Positions 1,261-13,120 of a DNA stretch of 27,730 nucleotides are shown here, piece by piece. Position 1 is the stretch's first letter. The number at the start of each line of letters is the position of its first letter. The notes beneath the pieces were generated by a model that was given only the letters and a program-made list of their open reading frames with translations, had not been told where the DNA came from and did not search any database. The DNA comes from Aestuariivirgaceae bacterium (lineage in GTDB: Bacteria; Pseudomonadota; Alphaproteobacteria; Rhizobiales; Aestuariivirgaceae): contig JANQIR010000128.1 in the NCBI GenBank assembly GCA_028282065.1, positions 1 through 27,730 on the forward strand. Reading direction: 5' to 3'. Made by a program: the position numbers and the translations under genes.

Positions 1261-1549
1261 CTCCGCTACTCACTCCCGGCCCTTTCCAGTCATCTCCTCT
1301 GGTCTTAAGCGAAGCCCGGCAACTGCGCAATGCACCGGGTGCTCAACATCATGTTATTGGGTCAATGACGTGCTGACATGTTGCGATCGGGTCACACGTG
1401 AGATGCGGAGCCGGAGCGCGTTCAGGTTGGGGCTATTTTGGTTTCCCTGAGCCGGCTGTTCGTACTTTCTGCCTTGACCGTGGCAATTGTCAGGTTCAGC
1501 CTGTACCTGTTGCAGGCATCCCCGCCACGGCCCGCAGGTCTCAACAGCA

Positions 1550-2995
1550 ATGGCTTATCCATTCGGTCACAGGCGCAATCTGGCGCTCGGAACGGTCATG
1601 TGCCTCATGATGGGCCTGGAACTGGCTGCCATCCTCTTTGATGTTTGGCCATTGCAGGCTGGCGTCATTGCCTGTGTCGTGGTGTTGCCGGTGCTCGGGC
1701 TGCCGGCGCTTAGAGGGCGGGAATTCTATCTGTTGTCCGCAGCGGCCGTGCTTGCCGCCATTGCATTGTGGCGAGACGGATTTAACGTGGAACTTTACTG
1801 GCAGGCGCTCAGCCGGTCCGGTTTTCTGGCCAGTTTCATCTTGCTGATGGGTTTGCTGCGTGATGGGGCTGTTACGTCGTCGGCCGTGGCGCAGTGCGGT
1901 GCATTCATTACCCGCCAGCCGTCGCGGCGCAGGTTTTTTGCGGTGTTCTCTGGGGCTCATGCCTTTGCGGTGCTGATCAATCTTGGGGCCTTAAGCTTGC
2001 TGGCGCCGATCATTCAGCTCGGGGTGCGGCAGGGCAAGCCACCCGGCGAGCCGCTTGATGAGATCTCGCAGATCCGCGAGCGCAGGCAACTGACTGCGGT
2101 CTTGCGTGGGTTCTCATGGTTCCTGGTTTGGGCACCGACCGCGGTTACCCAAGCCGTTCTGCCGACACTGATGACGGGGGTCGACAGCTTACGGTTGATC
2201 AAGCTGGGGCTTGGCATTGCGGCCGTGATGTTTTTGACAAGCTGGGCGGAAGATACGATGCGGTGGTGGTCTTACCGCAAGAAACTGGTTTCGGAGGGAG
2301 CTCTGCCGTCGTTTCAGCCCATGCCGTTTCCATCTCAGTCTTTCCGTAACCTGGGGGCCGTGTGCTTCGGGTTGTTCGGTCTGTCGATTGGCTTCTTGAC
2401 CCTGGTGGGAACGAGCATTGTGGAGGCGGTCATGCTTTCGGCGCCGCTTGTCGTCGTTACATGGATACTTGCACAAAACAGTCACATGGGAACCGCAGGC
2501 GCGGTGCGCGCAACCCGGGCGCGGTTGATCGAGATTGCCACGACTGCCGTACCCGGTTCTATTCGTGAGACCGTGTCGCTGGCGGCGGCGGGGTTCATCG
2601 GAACCCTTGCTGCGCATCTCACGCCTGTTGATGTGTTGTCGCAGTGGCTCGACCCGAACGTCGTGCCAGCGTGGGTGTTCATGCTAGGCCTTGCACTTGC
2701 GGTCCTTGCCGGAGGACAGATCGCACTCAGCCCGATAACCATGGCGGTGTTCCTGGGAAGTGTGGTGGCGGCCATGCCGACAATCCCCGCAGATGCAACA
2801 CTTGCAGCGCTCGGCATTGCTGCGGGGACCGCCATTTGCACCACCGGATCGCCATTTGCCTCCGGGACCCTGGTGCTCGCCAGGGCCTCGGGGCGCACGG
2901 GCGTCGAACTGACATGGCGATGGAACCTGGCTTATACCATTGCCGCTTGTGCTGTGCTGGCCATCTTGTTCGCCGCGATCACCGGTGGCCGGTAA
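1550..2995 (+). CDS. Polytopic inner-membrane protein of unknown function (about 12 predicted TM segments)
   Basis: Long ORF (track 1487..2995 with TTG start; first ATG at 1550). Strongly hydrophobic throughout with GC3-rich codon usage; no recognisable catalytic motif. Start codon is uncertain. Confidence 0.55.
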   Translation: MAYPFGHRRNLALGTVMCLMMGLELAAILFDVWPLQAGVIACVVVLPVLGLPALRGREFYLLSAAAVLAAIALWRDGFNVELYWQALSRSGFLASFILLMGLLRDGAVTSSAVAQCGAFITRQPSRRRFFAVFSGAHAFAVLINLGALSLLAPIIQLGVRQGKPPGEPLDEISQIRERRQLTAVLRGFSWFLVWAPTAVTQAVLPTLMTGVDSLRLIKLGLGIAAVMFLTSWAEDTMRWWSYRKKLVSEGALPSFQPMPFPSQSFRNLGAVCFGLFGLSIGFLTLVGTSIVEAVMLSAPLVVVTWILAQNSHMGTAGAVRATRARLIEIATTAVPGSIRETVSLAAAGFIGTLAAHLTPVDVLSQWLDPNVVPAWVFMLGLALAVLAGGQIALSPITMAVFLGSVVAAMPTIPADATLAALGIAAGTAICTTGSPFASGTLVLARASGRTGVELTWRWNLAYTIAACAVLAILFAAITGGR

Positions 2996-3113: not shown

Positions 3114-3677
3114 ATGACACCACGGCGAATAGCGATCTTCAAGCCGGATGGCACGAGACATGGTGGGTTTGGGCGCGAGATCCCGCTCGATGTTATGGAA
3201 CGGGAGTTGTGTGAACTTGGTTTCAGACCGCACGAACCGCAAAAGCGGCTGTTGCCGGGCAATAACTTCAGGCTTGGTGGACTGGCAACCGGTTGTTGCA
3301 ATGTCTATGAAATTGACGAGACGGAGCTTTTGGGCCGTGAAGAGATGTTGCGGAGCGCCGGGTTTGCCGTTTGGCCGGAACGCTCCGATCCGGTAAGTCC
3401 GCTGTATGACGGGTCGTTCGAAGACGGTGCTGAGAGCGAAGAAACAGTGTTCGACGATGAATGGCAGGGCTGCGAGGCGATGACGGCCGGATGCGAAACA
3501 GCCGACCCATCTATTGCCTATGTCGACAATGATGCGGGTGCGCTCGACGAGCTTTCCAATCAGCTCGTGCGTATTTGTGAAGAAACCGAGTATCCCAACA
3601 GCAGAGCCGAGGCCGAGCGGGTGAAGGCCGTGCTCAGTGCAGCTGCGCAACAACGGGATTCCATATGGCCTGAATGA
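3114..3677 (+). CDS. Hypothetical acidic cytoplasmic protein
   Basis: 187-aa ORF with ATG start and an AAAGGT SD-like sequence 7 nt upstream. Coding-like codon usage. Followed by two intrinsic terminators. No recognisable domain. Confidence 0.55.
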   Translation: MTPRRIAIFKPDGTRHGGFGREIPLDVMERELCELGFRPHEPQKRLLPGNNFRLGGLATGCCNVYEIDETELLGREEMLRSAGFAVWPERSDPVSPLYDGSFEDGAESEETVFDDEWQGCEAMTAGCETADPSIAYVDNDAGALDELSNQLVRICEETEYPNSRAEAERVKAVLSAAAQQRDSIWPE

Positions 3678-3818: not shown

Positions 3819-4409
3819 GGTGCCGCATTGGGGAGAAGGACAGCGTTCCCAATTTGCAGTGTTCTCTGCACGGATGCATGTGCTTGTGAACACGGGGGAA
3901 ACATGCCTGAAAACATCTAATACCCGGTTAACGTGTGCGCATGCAATTGATGCACGCAATAGGCGTTGTGCGGGTCAAGCTTTCCATTACACACCGCCGA
4001 TCGCGGCGCATACGGCTGAGCCTGCACCCCTGGCATGGCGGTACCCTTTCAGTGCGCTGGGCAAGGCCCCCTAAACCGGCTCAATTCCAAGAGATTATTG
4101 ATGGATACGGGTGGAAAAGTGCAGGTGCTTGTGCCCGTTCCGCTATAGGGGATCGTTAACCATATGCGCAAAATCCGGGCCCGCCAACCCGATAGCGTCA
4201 ATTTTGAGCAAATTGCCCGGCATCGCCGAAGAGTGTGTTTACGATTAGCAGCTAGCGTCAGAGCTGACCTTTTTGTTCGGGAAGTACCTGATGCTGATGC
4301 CTTTTGAGCTGCTGCCCGGCACACAGGCTTTCGAGCCGGGCAACCGAAGCTGAAGTTTTACATTGACCCCGGATGCCCATTGACCAGGGGAAGAGGTGGA
4401 ATAAGTTAT

Positions 4410-6542
4410 ATGACATGGACAGTTGCAAAAGACAGCGGAGCGGTTTCCTTTTCCCATTGGCTTGGCGACGCGTCCGAAGGAACCATTATCGGCAGGATGG
4501 GAACTGCTGAAGGTGCCCTGGCGGTGTCCGGCGGCCATGCGGTCGGTGGCGAGCAGGACGGAAAACGGTTCGAGGTCTTTCCCGGTCAATCCAAGTTTCT
4601 TTATGACGATCTGTTCTATCACATGCCGATGATGGTGCATGTGACGGATGGTGACGGCATTCTCTTGTCATGCAACAAGAACACGATCGATACGCTTGGT
4701 TTCGCTGAGGAAGAGCTGATCGGAAAGCATTGTCTCGATCTGGTAACCAGCGAATCGCGCGACAAGCTGCAGCGCGAAATCCTGCCGAGGTTCTTTGAAA
4801 CCGGGTTCTTCAGCAACGTTGAAATCAAGTTCCTGAGAAAGAGCGGTCAAACTGTCGATGTCCTGATGTCGGCTATCGGTTACAAGAACGCTGATGGGCG
4901 CATCGAGCGTGCCGTCGCGGTGTTTGCCGATATGACGGAACATTCGCGCACTCAGGCTGCCTTGCGCCAGAGTGAACAGCGCTTCCGCAACTCGTTTGAA
5001 GCCGCCGCACATGGCATGATGATTCTTACCGTGGATGGGCGGATCGCCGCTGTTAACGGTGCGATGACCGAGATGTTGGGCAAGAGCGAGTTTGACCTGT
5101 TGTCGAGCAGTTTCATGGACATCGTGTCGGGAGACGACCTGCCCAAAGTGCAGGATCTTGTCAGCCGGATCCGGGCCGGAAGCGGCGACGGGGTCAATGC
5201 CGAAATTGCCTATAGCGGTGCTGACGACAAGATCCTAAATGCGCTCACCAGCATATCCGCGGTGCGCGACAGTTATGGCAAAGTCGATCAGTTCATCGTA
5301 CAGGCCGTGGACATTACCGGGCGGCAGCGGGCTGAAGAACATCTGCGACAGGCGCAGAAAATGGAGGCCGTGGGCCAGCTTACCGGCGGTATCGCACATG
5401 ACTTCAACAACCTGCTAACCGTTGTTATCGGCAATCTGCAACTGGTTGAGAGCGCTTTGAAGGGTAACGACAAGGCGCAAAAGCGGGCCAAGGAAGCCAT
5501 TGACGCTGCGACCAAGGGCTCGGAACTGACCAAGCAGCTTCTGGCGTTTGCCCGCAGACAGTCGCTGACACCGCAGGAATTGAAGGTCAACCAGCTGATT
5601 GAAGGTATGGCCGGGCTGTTACAGAGGTCGGTTGGCGAAGCCGTGGAGCTTCGTGTCGATCTGATGGACGGTGATCCCATGGTTGAGGCCGATCCCACCC
5701 AGCTTGAGACTTCGATCCTCAATCTGGCGATCAACGCACGCGATGCAATGACGAAGGGTGGGCGGCTTACCATCGAGACATCTTCTGAGTATCTCGACGC
5801 AGACTATGCCCGTGATCATGAAGAGGTCACGCCTGGCCACTATCTGATGATCGCTGTGTCGGATACCGGATCCGGTATCCCCAAACATCTGCTTCACAAA
5901 GTATTCCAGCCGTTCTTCACGACAAAGGAAGTGGGCAAGGGAACAGGTCTCGGGCTTTCTATGGTTTTCGGATATATCAAGCAATCCGGCGGGCATGTGA
6001 AGGTCTACAGCGAGGAAGGGCGCGGTACGTCCATCAAGCTCTATTTGCCGCGCAAGTTTGCCGATGGCGAGCTGGCTGCTGAAGGGACCGGAAAGTCCAA
6101 GCAGAAGGAAGAGCGCAAGGGCAAGATCCTGGTTGTCGAAGATCAGGAAAACGTGCGGGACGTCGCCGTCGAATTTCTTGAGGAATTCGGCTACGAGGTT
6201 GTACAGGCCGGCGATGCCGTGGAGGCGTTGCAGGTCCTGCAGGATCACCCGGATGTCGATTTGCTGTTCACCGATGTCGTTATGCCAGGCGGCATGAACG
6301 GATTCGATCTCAGTCAGGCGGCCGAGCAGATCCGGCCGGATCTTAAGGTTGTTCACGCATCGGGTTATCCGAAAGGTGCCATGGTGCATCAAGAAGAGCC
6401 GCGACTGAAGGACAACCTGATCTCCAAGCCGTATCAGCGCGAGGAACTGCAGCGCGTCATCGAGCAAACGCTCAAAGGCGAAGGCGCGATTGAGCTCGAT
6501 GCGCAGGACCGCGTCCTGGCGGCCGGCGGCGGGCAGTCCTGA
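4410..6542 (+). CDS. Cytoplasmic hybrid sensor histidine kinase / response regulator (PAS-PAS-HisKA-HATPase_c-REC)
   Basis: H-box AHDFNNLLTVVIGNLQL. N/G boxes NLAINARDAM, DTGSGI, GTGLGLSMV. C-terminal receiver with KILVVEDQ..., LLFTDVVMPGGMNG and a Lys-Pro motif. No TM segments. ATG at 4410 is preceded by AGAGGTGGA; the track start 4380 is a TTG. Confidence 0.85.
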   Translation: MTWTVAKDSGAVSFSHWLGDASEGTIIGRMGTAEGALAVSGGHAVGGEQDGKRFEVFPGQSKFLYDDLFYHMPMMVHVTDGDGILLSCNKNTIDTLGFAEEELIGKHCLDLVTSESRDKLQREILPRFFETGFFSNVEIKFLRKSGQTVDVLMSAIGYKNADGRIERAVAVFADMTEHSRTQAALRQSEQRFRNSFEAAAHGMMILTVDGRIAAVNGAMTEMLGKSEFDLLSSSFMDIVSGDDLPKVQDLVSRIRAGSGDGVNAEIAYSGADDKILNALTSISAVRDSYGKVDQFIVQAVDITGRQRAEEHLRQAQKMEAVGQLTGGIAHDFNNLLTVVIGNLQLVESALKGNDKAQKRAKEAIDAATKGSELTKQLLAFARRQSLTPQELKVNQLIEGMAGLLQRSVGEAVELRVDLMDGDPMVEADPTQLETSILNLAINARDAMTKGGRLTIETSSEYLDADYARDHEEVTPGHYLMIAVSDTGSGIPKHLLHKVFQPFFTTKEVGKGTGLGLSMVFGYIKQSGGHVKVYSEEGRGTSIKLYLPRKFADGELAAEGTGKSKQKEERKGKILVVEDQENVRDVAVEFLEEFGYEVVQAGDAVEALQVLQDHPDVDLLFTDVVMPGGMNGFDLSQAAEQIRPDLKVVHASGYPKGAMVHQEEPRLKDNLISKPYQREELQRVIEQTLKGEGAIELDAQDRVLAAGGGQS

Positions 6543-6718
6543 TAGGGCAAGATCTCAACCAGAGTTGATCATCTGATCCTCAAGCAGCCGGCGCTCCCGG
6601 CTTTGCTGGTCAAGTCACACAGCTTGGAGTTTTCGGCAGGAAACCCGGTTTCGAGAATGCCGGGTGACTGCGGTCCGAACAATTTCCGGGCGGTGCGCTT
6701 TGCCGGCCAGGCTTGTAG

Positions 6719-6751
6719 ATGCACATCCATACCATCTTCGATCTGCTGGCC
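6719..6751 (+). repeat. Left direct repeat (33 bp, 30/33 identical to 7837..7869): atgcacatccataccatcttcgatctgctggcc
   Basis: Duplicates the ATG and first 11 codons of the Lgt-like gene (MHIHTIFDLLA vs MHIHSIFDLLA). It opens a 30-codon orphan ORF that runs into the AT-rich segment. Confidence 0.7.
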
Positions 6752-7836
6752 TTCTGGTGTGCCCAATGGATTTCCAAGACTTTGGTGTTTACATATATTC
6801 TGATTTTCTAATCACTTGACCTCTGCATTCCGCTTTCTATTTATCGAGAAAGAATCGACAATTTCGGAAATTCTACCAGCTTGCTCCAGAAAATCAGCAC
6901 TTGTTTTTTCTCCAGAAATTATTGAACTCATGCCAAGAAGTATTTTTCTTTCTATTGATTTATTTATATATGTCAATCTATTGACTGTCATTTTCTCTAA
7001 TTTATCCATTTCGTTATTACTTAATGTATTTTCTATTAGTTTTTGGATGATTTCATCATTGCGCCAATCGTTTAATTCACTATCCAAATGAAAATTTCGC
7101 AAAATGTAGGCTGTTCGAATATTTATGGCTCGGTAAGCGTTGTATAGTGCCCAAACGTAATCACCAATGTAGAGTCGTGCCGTTTCAATTTCCTGGTCCA
7201 ATTTGGATATAACATTCACCATCTTGTCATCAACGGACGTCGTGTCTTCGCTAATCGAAAGGTGATTGCGCAGTTCTTCAGGCTTTAAGATATCAGCGTG
7301 CAAAAGCACTTCTGGGGCTACTTGGCGAACTTTTAGAAAGTCCTGCCAAACTCGTTCGCAAGCGTCGAGACGGCGTTCATGGAGCTTTTCTTGACCGCTG
7401 GCATATGTTGCCAAAGCGGCGCGCTGCACCTCAATCTTTTCATTGAAGCTAGCGCTCAGTAGGGCTAAAGCCGTCTCACGTTCTGATGTTAGGTCTGATT
7501 TTAGTCGCTCCAATCTTTCATCGAATATGTGCCTCGCCGAGGAAGTAAGGAATTGACCAATGTATTTCCGCGAAAGCCATCCAATTACGGCCATAAGACC
7601 CATTGTTATGAACGTCGGAACGGCGAAATCAGCAAGGTAACTCACAACGTGGCCCTTCGCTCTCTGATATTTGCGACTATTTTATTGCTTACCCGCAAAC
7701 CAACCAATTGCAATTTCAATCATCATTTTTGTGCAGTGATGTCCGTGACGCTATTGCAAGTGTGAAGTGCAGGTGATGTGCGAGTCGGATTTTCATGATC
7801 GATATTCTGAGAGACTAATTGGGTTTTGTTTCAATG
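6752..7836. mobile_element. About 1.1-kb AT-rich insertion (GC well below flanks) bounded by 33-bp direct repeats. Carries one gene. No recombinase visible.
   Basis: Abrupt compositional shift: flanks are about 60% GC, the interior is visibly AT-rich, especially 6780-7150. Flanking direct repeats are at 6719..6751 and 7837..7869. Confidence 0.5.
6812..7645 (-). CDS. Hypothetical membrane-anchored protein (N-terminal TM helix plus about 250-aa soluble, partly coiled-coil-like domain) encoded on the AT-rich insertion
   Basis: 277-aa ORF with GTG start and GAAGGG 10 nt upstream. Single N-terminal hydrophobic helix (FAVPTFITMGLMAVIGWL). Atypical composition for this genome: Asn/Ile/Lys/Glu-rich. 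Confidence 0.6.
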   Translation of the reverse strand: MSYLADFAVPTFITMGLMAVIGWLSRKYIGQFLTSSARHIFDERLERLKSDLTSERETALALLSASFNEKIEVQRAALATYASGQEKLHERRLDACERVWQDFLKVRQVAPEVLLHADILKPEELRNHLSISEDTTSVDDKMVNVISKLDQEIETARLYIGDYVWALYNAYRAINIRTAYILRNFHLDSELNDWRNDEIIQKLIENTLSNNEMDKLEKMTVNRLTYINKSIERKILLGMSSIISGEKTSADFLEQAGRISEIVDSFSINRKRNAEVK

Positions 7837-8541
7837 ATGCACATTCATTCTATCTTCGATCTGCTGGCCGCCACGGCGTCATTCGCGTTGACCACCGTCG
7901 TTTATCTGCGGTGGCTCAAGGATGATGCGCCTTCAGTGCTGGAGACGTCCGGGGCTGGATATGCAGTGGCCCTGATCGCAGGTGCCATTACCGGCGGCTA
8001 TTTCTTCGGCGCGCTCAATCTGTGGCTAACTGGTGCGCCGGGTATCGGGCGCTCCATTCTCGGCGCTCTGGCCGGCGCTATTGCTTTTGTGGAAATATTC
8101 AAAAAAATCAAAGGGATAAAAGGTTCAACCGGCCTGATTTTTGTTCCGGCCTTTGCCTGCTCGGTGATGGTTGGGCGGTGGGGCTGTTTCCTCTCAGGTC
8201 TGGAGGATCAGACGCATGGGGTGGAGACGTCGCTGCCCTGGGGCCATGATTTTGGTGACGGCCTCTTGCGCCATCCGGTTCAGCTCTACGAGTCCTTCGC
8301 CATGACGGCATTTCTCATCGCCGCATTGGTCATGATCGCGCGCCGCCAGCCGATGTTCATGCGAAATGGGTTTTATCTCCTGGTTTTGTGGTATGCGGGA
8401 CAACGGTTTATCTGGGAATTTCTGAAACCCTACGGAACGGTATTTTTGGAATTGAACATCTTTCATTTTTTGTGTCTCGGGCTTATTGTGTACGCCGTGG
8501 CGATGATGCGGGGAGGCCAGAATGAACGTTCCACTGCGTAA
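7819..8541 (+). CDS. Divergent Lgt-family protein (prolipoprotein diacylglyceryl transferase-like, PF01790-type) with altered catalytic positions
   Basis: 240-aa polytopic membrane protein. GRWGCFLSGLE aligns to the Lgt signature GRLGNFINGELWG. RHPVQLYES aligns to RHPSQLYE. GQRFIWEFLKP aligns to GAFRIIVEFFRQP of E. coli Lgt. N146 equivalent is Cys and H103 equivalent is absent. Start is TTG at 7819 or ATG at 7834/7837. Confidence 0.7.
   Translation: MGFVSMMHIHSIFDLLAATASFALTTVVYLRWLKDDAPSVLETSGAGYAVALIAGAITGGYFFGALNLWLTGAPGIGRSILGALAGAIAFVEIFKKIKGIKGSTGLIFVPAFACSVMVGRWGCFLSGLEDQTHGVETSLPWGHDFGDGLLRHPVQLYESFAMTAFLIAALVMIARRQPMFMRNGFYLLVLWYAGQRFIWEFLKPYGTVFLELNIFHFLCLGLIVYAVAMMRGGQNERSTA
7837..7869 (+). 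repeat. Right direct repeat (33 bp), equal to the 5' end of the Lgt-like CDS
   Basis: atgcacattcattctatcttcgatctgctggcc; 30/33 identity to 6719..6751. Confidence 0.7.
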
Positions 8542-9928
8542 GGCGGCGCCTTACATATTTTACGGACAGACGACGTCGCTGTGCGAGACCTGTCATGCGC
8601 TGGTGCCGGCCAAGATCATCGTCGAAGACAATGCTGTTTACTACCTTAAGCGCTGCCGCGAACACGGCGTGCAGCGTACGCTTGTCTCATCGGATGCGGC
8701 CTATTACCGGCTCTGTCAGGACTATCTGAAGCCAGGTGACCGGCCACTCACCGCACAGACGGCGACCAACTACGGCTGCCCTTATGATTGCGGATTGTGT
8801 CCGGACCACGAGCAGCATTCCTGTCTGGCGCTGCTTGATGTCAACGATGAGTGCAATCTGACCTGCCCTGTGTGCTTTGCGGACTCAAGCCCGCGGCGCA
8901 AGGCCCACAAGAGCCTTGACGAGATTGCCCGTATGCTCGATGCGCTGGTGGAAAGTGAGGGCGAGCCGGACCTGCTGCAGATCTCTGGCGGCGAGCCGAC
9001 ATTGCACCCCGACATTCTCGACATCATACGGATGGCAAAAGCCAGGCCGATCCGGCACATCATGCTCAATACGAACGGATTGCGCATTGCGCAGGATGCC
9101 GACTTCGTCAAGGCGCTTGCGGAATTCAAACCGGGTTTTGAAGTCTATCTGCAGTTCGACTCGCTCAAACCTTCGGCACTGAAGACCCTGCGCGGTGCCG
9201 ATCTGACGCGCATCCGGTACCAGGCTCTGGAGGCACTGGAGCGGGAGGAACTTTCGACCACGCTGGTTTGCGTCATGAAGCGCGGGATCAATGACGACGA
9301 GACGGGCGAGATCATCGAGCATGCGCTGCAATGGAGCTGCGTGCGTGGTGTGACGTTCCAGCCGATCCAGGACGCCGGCCGCAACGACGGGTTCGACGCC
9401 AAGCGCGACCGTATGGTGCTGTCGGATATTCGGACCTCGATTGCTAAGAGTTCGGCGCCTTTCGATGCTGCCGACATCATTCCCCTGCCGTGCAATCCGG
9501 AGTCGATTGCGATTGGTTATGCCTTGCGGTCAGGCAACAGGATTGCGCCGATTACCTCGTTCATCCCGCAAGATGTCATCGTGGCCGAAGCGCCCAATGC
9601 CATTACCTTCGAGAAGTACCCGGAGTTGCAGCGGCGGATCTTCGAGTTCTTCTCCCTGTCGACGACACCGGACTGTACGCCTGAACGGTTGGAAGCCCTG
9701 CTGTGCTGTCTGCCGGACGTTCAGATGCCTGAACAGCTCGGCTACGAACATATCTTCCGCATCGCCATCGTGGAGTTTCTGGATGCCTACAATTTCTGTC
9801 TGAGCCGGGTGAAGCGGTCTTGTATCCATTTTCTGACACCCGCGGGGCAGATCATTCCGTTCGATACGTATAACCTGTTTTATCGGGATGGGCGGATCGA
9901 TGACATCAGGCGGGGGCTTGTATCATGA
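8522..9928 (+). CDS. Radical SAM enzyme with N-terminal Cys-rich (zinc-ribbon-like plus CPYDCGLCPDH) extension and C-terminal Cys cluster
   Basis: Canonical CNLTCPVCF (CX3CX2C) 4Fe-4S/SAM motif. GGEP glycine-rich SAM-binding block (ISGGEPTLHP). GGGAGG SD 8 nt upstream of the ATG. Overlaps the Lgt-like stop by 20 nt. Confidence 0.85.
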   Translation: MNVPLRKAAPYIFYGQTTSLCETCHALVPAKIIVEDNAVYYLKRCREHGVQRTLVSSDAAYYRLCQDYLKPGDRPLTAQTATNYGCPYDCGLCPDHEQHSCLALLDVNDECNLTCPVCFADSSPRRKAHKSLDEIARMLDALVESEGEPDLLQISGGEPTLHPDILDIIRMAKARPIRHIMLNTNGLRIAQDADFVKALAEFKPGFEVYLQFDSLKPSALKTLRGADLTRIRYQALEALEREELSTTLVCVMKRGINDDETGEIIEHALQWSCVRGVTFQPIQDAGRNDGFDAKRDRMVLSDIRTSIAKSSAPFDAADIIPLPCNPESIAIGYALRSGNRIAPITSFIPQDVIVAEAPNAITFEKYPELQRRIFEFFSLSTTPDCTPERLEALLCCLPDVQMPEQLGYEHIFRIAIVEFLDAYNFCLSRVKRSCIHFLTPAGQIIPFDTYNLFYRDGRIDDIRRGLVS

Positions 9929-10113
9929 TACGTGTCATTGGCATCATCATGGGGGTTATGCTGGTGTTATTTGGCGGTGGGTGTGGAATTGTCATGCTTG
10001 GATCGGCTTATTCCGCGAATGCCGCAATGGTCTTATGGTGGCTGCTCTGGGGTGGTGTGCCACTGGTTGCCGGCGCATTACTGACCTATTTTGCCTGGCA
10101 TCACAAAAGATGA
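9925..10113 (+). CDS. Small two-TM membrane protein (62 aa) with n-region/h-region/FGGGC lipobox-like N-terminus and a basic C-tail (HHKR)
   Basis: ATGA start/stop overlap with the radical SAM gene, indicating translational coupling. Paralogous to the next ORF. Confidence 0.55.
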   Translation: MIRVIGIIMGVMLVLFGGGCGIVMLGSAYSANAAMVLWWLLWGGVPLVAGALLTYFAWHHKR

Positions 10114-10132
10114 ACGAAAGGGAGCGGCCGCA

Positions 10133-10372
10133 ATGGGCGTTCTTCGGGTCATTGTCGGGATTTTCGCGTCGCTCGTCGCCGTGTTCGCCGGCGGATGTTC
10201 GCTGATCATTTTCGGAATGGGCATTGTGGACTGGTTTTCCGGTTACCAATATGCGTTCATTAACTTCGATGCGATGCTGATTATCGGTGTTTTGCCTGCC
10301 GTGATCGGTGGGCTGGTTGCCCGGGCGTGCTTTCGCAAGCGGCCAAAGACCGGTGAGGGCGACAACAACTAA
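10133..10372 (+). CDS. Small two-TM membrane protein paralog (79 aa) with n-region/h-region/FAGGC motif and basic C-tail (RKRPKTGEGDNN)
   Basis: AAGGGAG SD 8 nt upstream of the ATG at 10133 (track start 10091 lies upstream of the SD). Shares F[GA]GGC-[GS]-[IL][VI][MI][LF]G and a GG-containing second helix with 9925..10113. Confidence 0.55.
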   Translation: MGVLRVIVGIFASLVAVFAGGCSLIIFGMGIVDWFSGYQYAFINFDAMLIIGVLPAVIGGLVARACFRKRPKTGEGDNN

Positions 10373-10482
10373 CGCGCTACAAAATGCACTGTGTTGATTT
10401 TGTCTCCCTGGCGAAGTTCCACCAGACTTTTGGGACACCGAAATATGGTGCGGGCGATATCATCGAATTGTGAGTGACGTCC

Positions 10483-11244
10483 TCACAGACCGCTCAGAAA
10501 CGACACGATGTGGCCGATGACGGGTTTTGGGTTCGTTACAGGTGACATATGCCCGCCCGCTGCTATCTCGGCACGCGTGGCATGTGGCAGCCGGCTTGCG
10601 ATCAGATCCATGACGGCATGTGCTGCCCGTGTCGTATCGGCTGCGTGAACCAGAAGCACTGGCCACTTGAAATCGTCATAGTCTTCCAGCCGGGTCGTAT
10701 GTCCAAAAGCACCGGGCCATTCATTGGCGACTTTCGGCATGGTATCAGCCACGGCTTTCTGGCGCTCTGCCGGCATGGCGTCCCATGCATCCGGGCCCAT
10801 CCAGTAAGATACGAATCCCTTTGCCGCTGCGGTGTCGTCTCCGGCCCTTGAAAGCGCGACTTGCCGGTCGCGAACGTCCCGTATTTCCGCGAATGCCTGT
10901 TTGTCGCCGGACTGCTCCAGCAAATGAAAGCACACCGGCTCGATCAGCGTCAGGGAGCGTATTGCGTCTGGCTGTTCGAGGGCAGTACGGATAGACAGCA
11001 AGCCGCCATACGAGTGACCGATGAGGTGCACGGGACCGCCGGCATCTGCAACATGCTGGCGTATCCGATGCCGGTCATCCTCATGGCCTAGCGATTCGGC
11101 CTCAGGACTCTCATTGCCGTAGCCGCACAGGTTCGGGGCGATGACCCGGTATTGCCCGGCCACCGCTTCGACAAGGCCACGCCACTGCCGGCTTGAGCTG
11201 GCGCTGCTGTGCACCAGAACGACGGGTTCACCGCTTCCCTCCAT
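10483..11244 (-). CDS. Alpha/beta-fold hydrolase
   Basis: VVLVHSSASS (HG-like oxyanion region), nucleophile elbow IGHSYGG, and a C-terminal His. ATG at 11244; the track's GTG at 11268 is also possible. Confidence 0.75.
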   Translation of the reverse strand: MEGSGEPVVLVHSSASSSRQWRGLVEAVAGQYRVIAPNLCGYGNESPEAESLGHEDDRHRIRQHVADAGGPVHLIGHSYGGLLSIRTALEQPDAIRSLTLIEPVCFHLLEQSGDKQAFAEIRDVRDRQVALSRAGDDTAAAKGFVSYWMGPDAWDAMPAERQKAVADTMPKVANEWPGAFGHTTRLEDYDDFKWPVLLVHAADTTRAAHAVMDLIASRLPHATRAEIAAGGHMSPVTNPKPVIGHIVSFLSGL

Positions 11245-11464
11245 GATCACATCCTGCAATTCCGGCACCCTTGCTCACAGCCACCGGGCGGATCTATTGA
11301 CCGCCAGATCGTCCGTTCTCACCTTAGCCCATAATGGCAGCTTGGAATGCCTCCGTTTCAGAAAGGCAAAAGCCATGTGCTGCAATCCGTTGCGATTGGC
11401 ATTTGGTTTGGTTAAAAGCCGGGCAGCACATTTCCCGACTGTTTAACTGGAAGGAACTCGCCGG

Positions 11465-13120
11465 ATGGCGCGGCAATTCATCTATCACATGCACGGCCTG
11501 TCCAAGACCTATTCGGGCGGCAAAAAGGTCCTTGAGAACATCAACCTGTCCTTCTATCCCGACGCCAAAATCGGCGTGCTCGGCCCCAACGGCGCGGGCA
11601 AGTCGACCCTGTTGCGGATTATGGCAGGGCTCGACAAGGAGTTTTCCGGCGAAGCCTGGCTGGCAGACGGGGCCACGGTGGGGTACCTGCCCCAGGAGCC
11701 GGAGTTGGACGAGAGCAAGGACGTGCTCGGCAATGTCATGGAGGGCGTTGCCGAAAAGCAGGCCATTCTTGACCGCTACAACGAACTGATGATGAATTAC
11801 AGCGATGAAACAGCGGAAGAGGGTGCCAGGCTGCAGGACCTGATCGACAGTCAAAACCTGTGGGACCTTGATGCCCAGGTCGAACAGGCGATGGATGCCT
11901 TGCGCTGCCCGCCCGGCGATGCTGACGTCTCGAAGCTGTCGGGTGGCGAACGCCGCCGCGTGGCGCTAACCAAACTTTTGCTGTCCAAACCCGACCTTAT
12001 CCTGCTTGATGAGCCGACCAATCATCTCGATGCGGAATCGGTCAACTGGCTTGAGCATCACTTGCGTGAGTATCCCGGGGCGATCCTGATCGTCACCCAT
12101 GACCGGTACTTCCTTGACAATGTCACCGGCTGGATCCTCGAGCTGGATCGGGGCAGGGGCATACCCTACGAAGGCAACTACTCGGCCTATCTGGAGCAGA
12201 AATCCAAACGGTTCAAGCAGGAGGCCCGGGAGGACGCAGCGCGGCAACGGGTGCTGGACCGCGAGCGCGAATGGATCGCGGCCTCACCGCGCGCCCGGCA
12301 GGCCAAGTCGAAGGCGCGGATCAAGGCTTATGACGAGTTGGTGCGAACCAATGAAGAGCGCATGAAATCGTCATCAGCGCAGATTGTCATTCCACCGGGT
12401 GAACGGCTTGGGTCCGTGGTGATCGAAGTTGACGGCCTCAAGAAGGCCTTTGGCGACAAGCTGCTGATCGATGCCTTGTCCTTCAAGCTGCCGGCGGGCG
12501 GTATCGTTGGCGTGATCGGTGCAAACGGCGCCGGTAAGACCACGTTGTTCCGGATGCTGACGGGACAGGAGCAGCCGGACAGCGGGGATATCAGGCTGGG
12601 TGAGACCGTGCATTTGGGATATGTCGACCAATCGCGCGATGCGCTGGATGGCAATCGGTCGGTGTGGGAGGAGATATCGGGTGGTAACGATATCATCCAC
12701 CTTGGGAAACGTGAGGTGAATTCAAGGGCTTACACGTCTGCCTTCAACTTCCGTGGTGGCGATCAACAGCAAAAGGTCGGTTCTCTGTCCGGTGGGCAGC
12801 GCAATCGCGTGCATCTGGCCAAGATGCTGAAATCAGGTGCTAACGTACTGTTGCTCGACGAGCCGACAAATGACCTGGATACTGAAACGCTCGCAGCGCT
12901 GGAAGAGGCGTTAGAGGAGTTTGCCGGCTGTGCGGTGATCATCAGCCACGACCGGATGTTCCTTGACCGGCTGGCCACCCATATTCTGGCATTTGAGGGT
13001 GATAGCCATGTCGAGTGGTTCGAGGGTAACTTCGAAGATTACGAGGAAGACAAAAAGAGGCGGCTGGGCGAGGATGCCGTGATGCCGAAGCGGATCAAGT
13101 ACAAGCAGTTTTCCAGATAG
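11465..13120 (+). CDS. ettA: Energy-dependent translational throttle protein EttA (ABC-F family ATPase, two ABC domains, no TMD)
   Basis: 551 aa. N-terminus [55 protein letters not shown] is near-identical in pattern to E. coli EttA/YjjK. Two Walker A motifs ([18 protein letters not shown]) and two LSGG signatures. Confidence 0.9.

Follow-up and report, generated by a model that had tools for sequence, protein, structure and literature searches.

An AT-rich islet flanked by att-like direct repeats in the first codons of a conserved Lgt-like gene

A segment of foreign DNA lies within the first 11 codons of a conserved gene for an Lgt-like membrane protein in the window (the whole 27.7-kb stretch of DNA that was analysed). 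Imperfect direct repeats flank it, its base composition departs from that of its surroundings, related loci lack it, and both the gene that it carries and the gene that it entered are intact. We regard it as moderately probable that the segment was acquired by Campbell-type integration, in which a circular element bearing an imitation of the Lgt-like 5' end would have put its own version in place of the native one.

Results

The insert is sharply poorer in GC than the remaining window (0.411 compared with 0.578), as the first-pass annotation of this DNA had remarked, with minima of 0.26-0.27 in 100-nt windows inside it, and the steps in GC fall at the positions of the repeats (Table 1). It holds only one long open reading frame, intact and, as had been described, on the opposite strand, which encodes a protein of 277 aa (the cargo); GC3 in this gene is 0.40, compared with 0.63-0.74 across 13 host genes. 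The non-coding parts of the insert (60 bp and 191 bp) are too short for a recombinase remnant. The earlier observation that no transposase or integrase is present also holds beyond the insert: the whole 27.7-kb window, in which the insert is single-copy, is free of integrase, transposase and tRNA genes.

Table 1 Features of the islet and of the neighbouring genes, with positions in the window
Feature	Position	Strand	Basis or remark
Hybrid histidine kinase (PAS/HisKA/HATPase/receiver)	4380..6542	+	Pfam; conserved upstream neighbour in relatives
Native GC-rich intergenic region	6543..6718	+	GC 0.58-0.66; no Rfam match
Left direct repeat, attL-like; probable remnant of the native Lgt-like start (MHIHTIFDLLA)	6719..6751	+	Orthologue-majority base at 3/3 variant positions
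Orphan ORF, 30 codons (11 native, 19 from the insert)	6719..6811	+	ORF list, sequence reading
18-nt identical block ATCTTCGATCTGCTGGCC, left copy	6734..6751	+	Presumed crossover block and position
Inserted foreign segment	6752..7836	.	1,085 bp between the two repeats, 41% GC; homologue absent from 160 related loci
Cargo gene, 277 aa, N-terminal hydrophobic helix and all-helical body	6812..7645	-	Large unnamed family
AT-rich divergent intergenic region from the insert, 191 bp	7646..7836	.	GC 0.43-0.48; 5' of cargo and Lgt-like genes
Right direct repeat, attR-like; present Lgt-like start (MHIHSIFDLLA)	7837..7869	+	T at all three variant positions
Lgt-like (PF01790) membrane protein, target gene, intact	7837..8541	+	Full-length alignment to orthologues, 60-70% identity
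Radical-SAM gene, conserved operon partner	8522..9928	+	Overlaps Lgt-like gene by 20 nt

A metagenome-type contig, a sharp change in composition and a cargo without close relatives are what might be seen in an assembly artefact, that is, a chimeric contig in which two strains or organisms were joined at the repeat. However, a separately assembled Logan contig of 6,222 bp (run SRR20820736) is identical to positions 5385-11606 of the window, with no mismatches, and covers both junctions of the insert, and on either side host sequence carries on in the same arrangement as in relatives. The longest exact stretch common to the two repeat copies is 18 nt; assembler k-mers are usually longer than this, so that a chimeric join at the repeat is unlikely, and we find an artefact barely credible.

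Sequence reading and a repeat search placed the left repeat at 6718-6751 (GATGCACATCCATACCATCTTCGATCTGCTGGCC) and the right repeat at 7836-7869 (GATGCACATTCATTCTATCTTCGATCTGCTGGCC), with similarity beginning one base 5' of the ATG that opens both copies. Direct reading returned the values that had been given before, namely 30/33 identical nucleotides between 6719-6751 and 7837-7869, or 31/34 counting the preceding G, and the translations agree with the proposed M-H-I-H-(T/S)-I-F-D-L-L-A. All three mismatches, at positions 9, 13 and 15, fall in the first 15 nt, and the final 18 nt (ATCTTCGATCTGCTGGCC) are the same in both copies. When up to three mismatches were allowed, the 33-mer was found at two sites only in the window and at none in 100 shuffles, which puts it far beyond the chance low-complexity match that had been named as an objection. 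The left repeat does head an orphan ORF of 30 codons that reads into the insert (6719-6811), as had also been noted, and the TAA that ends this ORF directly adjoins the cargo gene's stop codon. No terminal inverted repeats were found at the insert ends.

Comparison with 49 orthologue gene starts indicated which copy resembles the native one. Where the copies differ, the left one has C, A and C, the majority bases among the orthologues (31/49, 26/49 and 29/49, respectively), whereas the right one has T at each position, in keeping with the AT-rich insert. Of the 49 comparisons, 35 placed the left copy nearer to the orthologue start and 8 the right copy, and the best blastn match of the left repeat was a related gene start (locus L019; 90.6% over 32 nt). 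The TCT codon of the right repeat is used nowhere in the rest of the Lgt-like gene and makes up 19 of the 282 serine codons of host genes. Because the right copy carries T, T and T against the orthologue-majority bases of the left copy, these three nucleotide positions, the only ones that differ, suggest that the first 15 nt of the right copy came with the insert.

The first-pass annotation had offered a target-site duplication and an att-like repeat as possibilities. The att-like nature is the one that we favour, and a duplication is disfavoured, because the imperfect copies share a block of 18 identical nt, the variant bases of the right copy look foreign and terminal inverted repeats are absent. 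An insertion sequence, transposon or MITE was rejected in view of the missing terminal inverted repeats, the missing transposase and the 33-nt imperfect repeat. An integron gene cassette was rejected as well, since the 3' flank folds no better than shuffles (z = 0.67) and there is neither an inverted repeat nor an integrase. In the reconstructed attP, inverted repeats were not above shuffled controls, the best being no better than 98 of 100 shuffles.

The same observations bear on a one-off capture that was not site-specific, in which 33 nt of the target were duplicated and the three substitutions in the right copy arose later; a filled-in staggered break, end-joining or template switching that returned 33 nt upstream are possible routes. 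Such an event fits with the lack of a recombinase, of recurrence at this site in about 160 relatives, of a second copy of the insert and of att-like inverted-repeat structure. It would, however, produce copies that start identical, so that 3/3 changes must then have fallen in the functional copy, within its first 15 nt and all to T, while the non-functional left copy retained the orthologue-majority bases. Duplications made by transposition are typically 2-15 nt, far below 33 nt, and here terminal inverted repeats are lacking too. On this evidence we consider a one-off capture unlikely.

The order of kinase, Lgt-like and radical-SAM genes is kept in relatives with 60-70% protein identity. About 20 related loci have the kinase followed by the Lgt-like gene, and in four relatives the kinase ends 34-68 bp 5' of the Lgt-like start. 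A cargo homologue was found in 0 of about 160 related loci, a second copy of the gene start in 0 of the 106 related loci with a recognisable start motif (within 6-10 kb), and a GC dip beside the Lgt-like gene comparable to that of the insert in no relative; none of the 20 immediate upstream neighbours tested at related loci was an integrase. The earlier proposal that foreign DNA entered the Lgt-like gene at its 5' end thus gains support from relatives that have the gene order and lack both the cargo and the duplicated start, and the contrary case, in which relatives carry the same gene, was seen at none of the 160 loci. A search for an empty site had been proposed as well: in relatives the Lgt-like gene does follow the kinase, but the searched collections yielded no empty-site allele of the same species. 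In 5.8 billion clusters the nearest Lgt-like protein has 70% identity, and the best matches in genome and metagenome scans range from 64 to 72% identity.

Related loci also speak to a donor of lower GC content in which the cargo gene would already have stood divergently 5' of that donor's own Lgt-like gene; a circularised fragment of this donor would have been recombined by RecA, within the short shared stretch of 5' coding sequence, with no dedicated recombinase. The right copy does resemble a divergent orthologous 5' end (91% identical, with AT-rich codons), the N-terminal coding segment is conserved across taxa at the nucleotide level, and no integrase is present. Yet a cargo homologue lies beside the Lgt-like gene in 0 of 160 related loci, and the scheme requires an accidental circle with its junction exactly at codon 11. 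Efficient recombination by RecA usually needs a minimum of identity that the 18 nt available here only reach or fall below. Taken together, a donor of this kind appears improbable.

Other copies of the insert, for which a search had been suggested, did not come to light. There was no copy of the insert or close relative of the cargo in about 15 billion proteins, no DNA match to the insert among plasmid records and no protein match to the cargo in phage records, and all cargo relatives are at most 33% identical. Nor was a related autonomous element found for the Lgt-like site.

Clustered at 50% identity, the cargo family amounts to roughly a thousand clusters, and 993 distant representatives with 20-33% identity were retrieved from it; a profile search of a word-indexed protein database returned four proteins only. 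The cargo itself has no Pfam or PADLOC match, and its matches in NCBIfam (21 bits, cut-off 436) and PHROGs (E = 0.046) are at chance level. Its AlphaFold model (pLDDT 92.8) gave generic helical bundles as the only fold matches. When 56 family members were compared with PADLOC-DB 2.0, only scattered single matches with E values of 0.001 or weaker were obtained, and a known anti-phage defence family was rejected as the identity of the cargo for want of a match in that database.

In seven of the nine contexts examined, cargo homologues adjoin mobile-element or restriction genes. One lies directly 3' of gmtX on a Photobacterium plasmid, one on Thauera pTha01 adjoins a tyrosine-recombinase fragment and an HNH gene, and one in Chromobacterium is found at the end of a P4-like element, 3' of the primase; others adjoin Mrr, a resolvase, DUF2971 or a methylase-endonuclease pair. 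The Chromobacterium context was rejected as an instance of the defined P4 hotspot, which is situated between psu and int. Repeats comparable to those of the insert were present in 0 of the 9 contexts. An accessory protein of the mobilome, anchored in the membrane, is the probable identity of the cargo, for which a part in defence or exclusion is conceivable.

The native intergenic region (6543-6718) presumably once led into the Lgt-like gene, from which the insert now parts it, and may have had a promoter role; the AT-rich region 7646-7836 is likewise a putative promoter region for the cargo and Lgt-like genes, and the first-pass annotation had presumed that the operon is now transcribed from within the foreign DNA. 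A consensus scan revealed no sigma-70-like promoter on the + strand of 7646-7836, and no terminator was found in 6400-8000, so transcription of the Lgt-like and radical-SAM genes by read-through from upstream is possible. The insert would affect the radical-SAM gene through transcription only. A regulatory RNA in this region was rejected, as 6400-8000 has no Rfam match at E values up to 1 and the fold of the native intergenic region is ordinary (z = -1.48).

Discussion

In the Campbell-type integration that we favour, a small, putatively circular element would have brought the 277-aa gene and, with it, an attP-like imitation of the first 11 codons of the Lgt-like gene, ATG included. One reciprocal crossover, by a presumed recombinase and presumably within the 18-nt block ATCTTCGATCTGCTGGCC of the Lgt-like 5' end, would then have created two hybrid sites. 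The left one (6719-6751) would consist of the native ATG and first five codons, the 18-nt core and element DNA, leaving the native upstream region with the 30-codon orphan ORF, and the right one (7837-7869) of element DNA that provides a surrogate ATG and codons rich in AT, the core and the native gene body. The repeats may be read as hybrid att sites because they are imperfect in a particular way, every mismatch being confined to 15 nt and the remaining 18 nt being the same in both, and the insert probably supplies the start codon since similarity begins one base before the ATG. With a surrogate start supplied by the element, the Lgt-like gene would stay intact. The predicted empty site is GGCTTGTAGATGCACATCCATACCATCTTCGATCTGCTGGCCGCCACGGCG and the predicted circle junction GTTTCAATGATGCACATTCATTCTATCTTCGATCTGCTGGCCTTCTGGTGTGCC.

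As neither the insert nor the 27.7-kb contig encodes a recombinase, the islet could be a decayed remnant in which both candidate att sites are kept, similar to a CIME, or alternatively a non-autonomous cassette that depends for its movement on a recombinase from another locus. It is highly doubtful, in our view, that the islet is an active, minimal, integrase-less cassette, made up of one gene, a promoter region and an attP resembling the start of a conserved gene, whose recombinase, encoded elsewhere, targets the conserved F-D-L-L-A coding segment of Lgt-like genes and whose cargo serves phage or plasmid exclusion. If that were true, the islet would be an analogue of an integron cassette targeted to the 5' ends of genes, and its cargo a member of an undescribed, widespread family of membrane proteins.

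Islands that take over the 5' end of the gene they enter are already known, and the islet, a very small and clean case of this kind, does not overturn current understanding. It does illustrate how single accessory genes can persist in core operons once the delivery machinery is lost, and it points to the start of the Lgt-like gene as a possible new attachment site; many Alphaproteobacteria, Planctomycetota and other groups have such a gene in partnership with one for a radical-SAM enzyme. The recurrence of the cargo family next to recombinases, restriction genes and satellite or GMT elements makes it a reasonable candidate for defence screening.

Several known systems resemble parts of the islet. 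The cargo of GMT islands (bioRxiv 10.1101/2023.03.28.534373) and that of P4-like satellites (PMC9122126) are both reported to be rich in defence genes, and distant homologues of our cargo occur after gmtX in Photobacterium and, in Chromobacterium, at the end of a P4-like element. However, no PADLOC or Pfam model fits the cargo family, and the Chromobacterium homologue follows the primase rather than occupying the psu-int hotspot of Escherichia coli P4. CIMEs are described as elements that have lost their integration and transfer genes and kept attL and attR (PMC5704250; Pavlovic et al., 2004, cited there). The islet likewise has two repeats, putatively att-like, and no mobility genes, although it contains no decayed mobility fragments from which descent from an ICE or IME could be demonstrated, and CIMEs were described mainly in Firmicutes and at the 3' ends of genes whereas the islet is at a 5' end.

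The closest parallels are islands at gene starts. SXT/R391 integrates at the 5' end of prfC, to which we liken the islet (PMC2791158, citing Hochhut and Waldor, 1999), but these elements are about 100 kb, self-transmissible and equipped with Int and Xis, none of which applies to the islet. In dusA islands, as described by Farrugia et al. (2015; PMC4482086), island sequence replaces the 5' end of dusA, a remnant 5' end is left, and imperfect 21-bp direct repeats (attL and attR) flank the island. Those islands measure several to tens of kb, with a tyrosine integrase next to dusA, and occupy this site in hundreds of genomes, in contrast to a 1.1-kb islet without an integrase that occurs once, in a different target gene. 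The islet thus departs from the dusA and SXT-prfC type in having no tyrosine or serine recombinase within the element and in the vacancy of the same site elsewhere (0 of 106 loci, 0 of 20 neighbours). What it shares with dusA islands is a position in the start of a conserved protein-coding gene, a new 5' end supplied to that gene and imperfect direct repeats, and with the type as a whole the combination of foreign DNA and imperfect repeats in a gene 5' end, together with, as judged from three nucleotide positions, an element-derived start and a native remnant at the distal side.

Structure and composition of the islet

The 1,085-bp segment between two direct repeats at the start of the Lgt-like gene has a GC content of 41.1%, compared with 57.8% in the rest of the window, and falls to 26–27% in its lowest 100-nt windows, with the GC steps located at the repeats. 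As the first-pass annotation had described, it carries one long ORF, the cargo gene, on the minus strand, leaving only 60 + 191 bp of non-coding sequence. The GC3 of this gene is 0.40, against 0.63–0.74 in thirteen host genes. Its GC content is also uneven (26–39% in the 3' third and 51–52% in the 5' half; 6800–7100 and 7300–7500, respectively), which could reflect a mosaic origin or uneven amelioration.

Coordinates of features in the window and in the compared loci
Feature	Locus	Position	Strand	Remarks
ORF 5' of kinase gene	window	1487-2995	+	502 aa; no Pfam match
ORF 5' of kinase gene	window	3114-3677	+	187 aa; no Pfam match
Hybrid histidine-kinase gene	window	4380..6542	+	left of insert
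Native GC-rich intergenic region	window	6543-6718		now 1.1 kb from Lgt-like gene
Left repeat (attL-like)	window	6719-6751		ATGCACATCCATACCATCTTCGATCTGCTGGCC; MHIHTIFDLLA
Orphan ORF	window	6719-6811	+	30 codons; starts in left repeat
Insert	window	6752-7836		1,085 bp
Cargo gene	window	6812-7645	-	277 aa
Right repeat (attR-like)	window	7837-7869		ATGCACATTCATTCTATCTTCGATCTGCTGGCC; MHIHSIFDLLA
Lgt-like gene	window	7837-8541	+	intact; PF01790
Radical-SAM gene	window	8522-9928	+	overlaps Lgt-like gene by 20 nt
Small membrane-protein gene	L002 (related Lgt-like locus)	5621-5998		125 aa; kinase/Lgt-like gap
Small membrane-protein gene	L003 (related Lgt-like locus)	5434-5811		125 aa; kinase/Lgt-like gap
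Small membrane-protein gene	L002	6627-7121		164 aa; between Lgt-like and radical-SAM genes
REP-like repeats	L088 (locus with cargo-family homologue)	9029-9055, 9928-9954, 9954-9980		palindromic, 27 nt, GTCCGC...GCGGAC type

Direct reading placed the repeats where the first-pass annotation had them, and likewise found that each opens with an ATG and encodes MHIH(T/S)IFDLLA. The copies differ at positions 9, 13 and 15 and are identical over the final 18 nt; a repeat finder extended the match leftward by one base (G), giving 31/34 identity. With as many as three mismatches allowed, nothing in the window besides these two places matched the 33-mer, nor did any of 100 shuffled sequences. The left repeat heads the orphan ORF, as had also been claimed. 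The TAA stop of this ORF (6809-6811) directly abuts the TGA stop (6812-6814) of the convergent cargo gene, and its end encodes a strongly hydrophobic tail, FWCAQWISKTLVFTYILIF. A reconstructed circular form would hold the same small ORF, with the element's own start.

The islet is not an assembly artefact, since a contig from a separate assembly (Logan, run SRR20820736; 6,222 bp) matches window positions 5385-11606 with 0 mismatches, spanning both junctions and encoding the cargo protein, and since the longest exact match between the two repeats, 18 nt, is shorter than the usual k-mers of assemblers.

Comparison with related loci

We compared the window with 80 related loci from a scan of species-representative genomes and 80 from a metagenome scan, with Lgt-like proteins ~45–72% identical. 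The Lgt-like protein of the window is a membrane protein, and the order kinase, Lgt-like gene, radical-SAM gene recurs in ~20 related loci. A homologue of the inserted gene was absent from all 80 + 80 loci, none of the 106 with a recognisable N-terminal motif had a second gene start within 6–10 kb, and in none did GC fall to a similar extent beside the Lgt-like gene. These results support the proposed insertion at the 5' end of the Lgt-like gene. In four loci (L024, L027, L029 and L038), 34–68 bp separate the end of the kinase alignment from the Lgt-like start. In other loci the gap is 335–700 bp, and three have larger gaps (1,027, 2,062 and 2,680 bp) of normal GC. No true empty-site allele was found: in 5.8 billion protein clusters, the closest Lgt-like sequence has 70% identity. 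That the insertion is the derived state is thus concluded from different genera rather than from members of one species.

The gaps of L002 and L003 hold a small membrane-protein gene, and L002 has a second one between the Lgt-like and radical-SAM genes. Similar-size gaps occur at both positions in many other Aestuariivirga-like loci; the window has neither gene there, and its Lgt-like gene runs into the radical-SAM gene. Pairing of these last two genes is conserved across well over 100 loci, whose labels include Alphaproteobacteria, Planctomycetota and Gemmatimonadota among others, with the order reversed (radical-SAM upstream) in loci labelled Planctomycetota and Kuenenia. An HMPTM-type zinc ribbon is present in the radical-SAM protein, whose scores fall short of the cut-offs for TrsS (315 vs 490 bits) and the tetraether lipid synthase Tes (278 vs 450 bits).

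The 191 bp directly 5' of the Lgt-like gene are foreign and divergently shared with the cargo gene. Because consensus scans found no sigma-70-like site on the plus strand of these 191 bp and no intrinsic terminator in 6400-8000, there are two candidate routes of transcription: the Lgt-like/radical-SAM operon is plausibly driven by a promoter supplied by the element, as the first-pass annotation presumed, or is possibly reached by transcripts that start on the kinase side and cross the cargo gene in antisense.

The cargo protein and its family

Pfam and PADLOC models did not match the cargo protein, and matches in NCBIfam and PHROGs were at chance level. Its relatives do not exceed 33% identity: exhaustive HMMER searching (E up to 0.001) retrieved 993 representative clusters, mostly of 260–290 aa and 20–33% identical. 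This family is unnamed and missing from Pfam-A (2025) and PADLOC 2.0, and none of 56 aligned members gave a consistent match to Pfam or PADLOC. The alignment revealed a hydrophobic, helical N-terminus and invariant W100, W194 and G245 (window-protein numbering) across the family. An AlphaFold model built from it was confident (pLDDT 92.8) and all-helical, with a helix at residues 2–109 followed by a helical bundle, and fold searches returned generic helical bundles only.

We also inspected the genomic context of nine distant homologues. On a Photobacterium plasmid, the homologue directly follows gmtX of a GMT element and precedes a recombinase and Tn3; on Thauera pTha01, its neighbours are a tyrosine-recombinase fragment, an HNH gene and IS21; in Chromobacterium, it follows the primase and closes a P4-like element, and is not in psu-int, the hotspot defined for E. 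coli P4. Others adjoin, one each, an Mrr-type nuclease, a resolvase, a DUF2971 gene and a methylase-endonuclease pair, and two of the nine contexts had no mobile or defence-like neighbours. The family often adjoins recombinases, restriction genes or satellite/GMT elements, and defence cargo has been reported in GMT islands and P4-like satellites (bioRxiv 10.1101/2023.03.28.534373; PMC9122126). One may reasonably guess that the cargo is a membrane-anchored mobilome accessory protein, possibly for exclusion or defence. In L088, a JGI metagenome contig, REP-like repeats flank the gene adjoining the cargo-family homologue.

Origin of the repeats and mode of insertion

Both repeats were compared with the gene starts of 49 orthologues. 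At each of the three variant positions the left repeat agrees with most of them (C in 31, A in 26 and C in 29 of 49), and the right repeat has T throughout; the left copy was closer to the orthologues in 35/49 cases and the right in 8/49. Blastn agreed with this: the left repeat matched the gene start of the related locus L019 at 90.6% over 32 nt. The TCT codon of the right repeat occurs nowhere else in the Lgt-like gene and is rare in host genes (19/282 serine codons). On these grounds the left repeat looks like the original Lgt-like start; the three positions likewise suggest that the right repeat owes its initial 15 nt to the AT-rich insert, the 18 identical bases marking the joining place.

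Such an arrangement would arise by one reciprocal crossover between the chromosomal site and a circular element whose attachment site (att) mimics the opening codons of its target. Such a crossover would yield a native 5' remnant upstream, foreign DNA in the middle and a surrogate start in frame with the native gene body, and all three are present at the locus. As the first-pass annotation had stated, neither insert nor window encodes a transposase or integrase: the only ORF of the insert had no recombinase match, and the rest of the 27.7-kb window lacks recombinases and tRNAs, its proteins having ordinary roles in metabolism, transport and regulation. The evidence supports an insertion flanked by att-like repeats and lacking a recombinase, one of the options raised earlier. 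The other was target-site duplication; a transposon causing one was rejected, given the absence of terminal inverted repeats and of a transposase, the single copy of the insert, and a repeat both long and imperfect. Also rejected was the integron-cassette model, because both an integrase and a hairpin 3' of the ORF are absent.

There is no sign of repeated use of the site: relatives have no second gene starts, and the genes lying immediately upstream of Lgt-like genes, 20 of them from diverse genomes, included no integrase. The search for other copies of the insert, which had been proposed, found none in about 15 billion proteins or in plasmid or phage records, inverted repeats in the reconstructed attP (the element's attachment site) did not exceed shuffled controls, and the nine homologue contexts had no comparable repeats. 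Because none of this favours a site-specific element of a dedicated kind, a one-off illegitimate capture, with 33 nt duplicated and then drifting, deserves some weight; we consider it rather unlikely, as all three changes would have to fall in the first 15 nt of the functional copy, all to T, while the non-functional copy stayed ancestral. RecA recombination, in which a donor would have contributed a circularised piece of its homologous locus, appears improbable, given that no related locus has a cargo-family member beside the Lgt-like gene and that the identical stretch, at 18 nt, is very short. We modestly favour site-specific integration, the islet being either a decayed remnant resembling a CIME (a cis-mobilizable element that keeps attL and attR and has lost its mobility genes; PMC5704250) or a non-autonomous cassette moved in trans.

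Like this islet, dusA islands have imperfect direct repeats (21 bp) and leave a remnant 5' end, the 5' end of dusA being replaced by island sequence (PMC4482086), and the same 5'-end behaviour is documented for SXT/R391 elements at prfC (PMC2791158); unlike both, the islet has no mobility genes. The favoured mechanism is already known; the form is unusually minimal, the target new and the cargo family uncharacterised.
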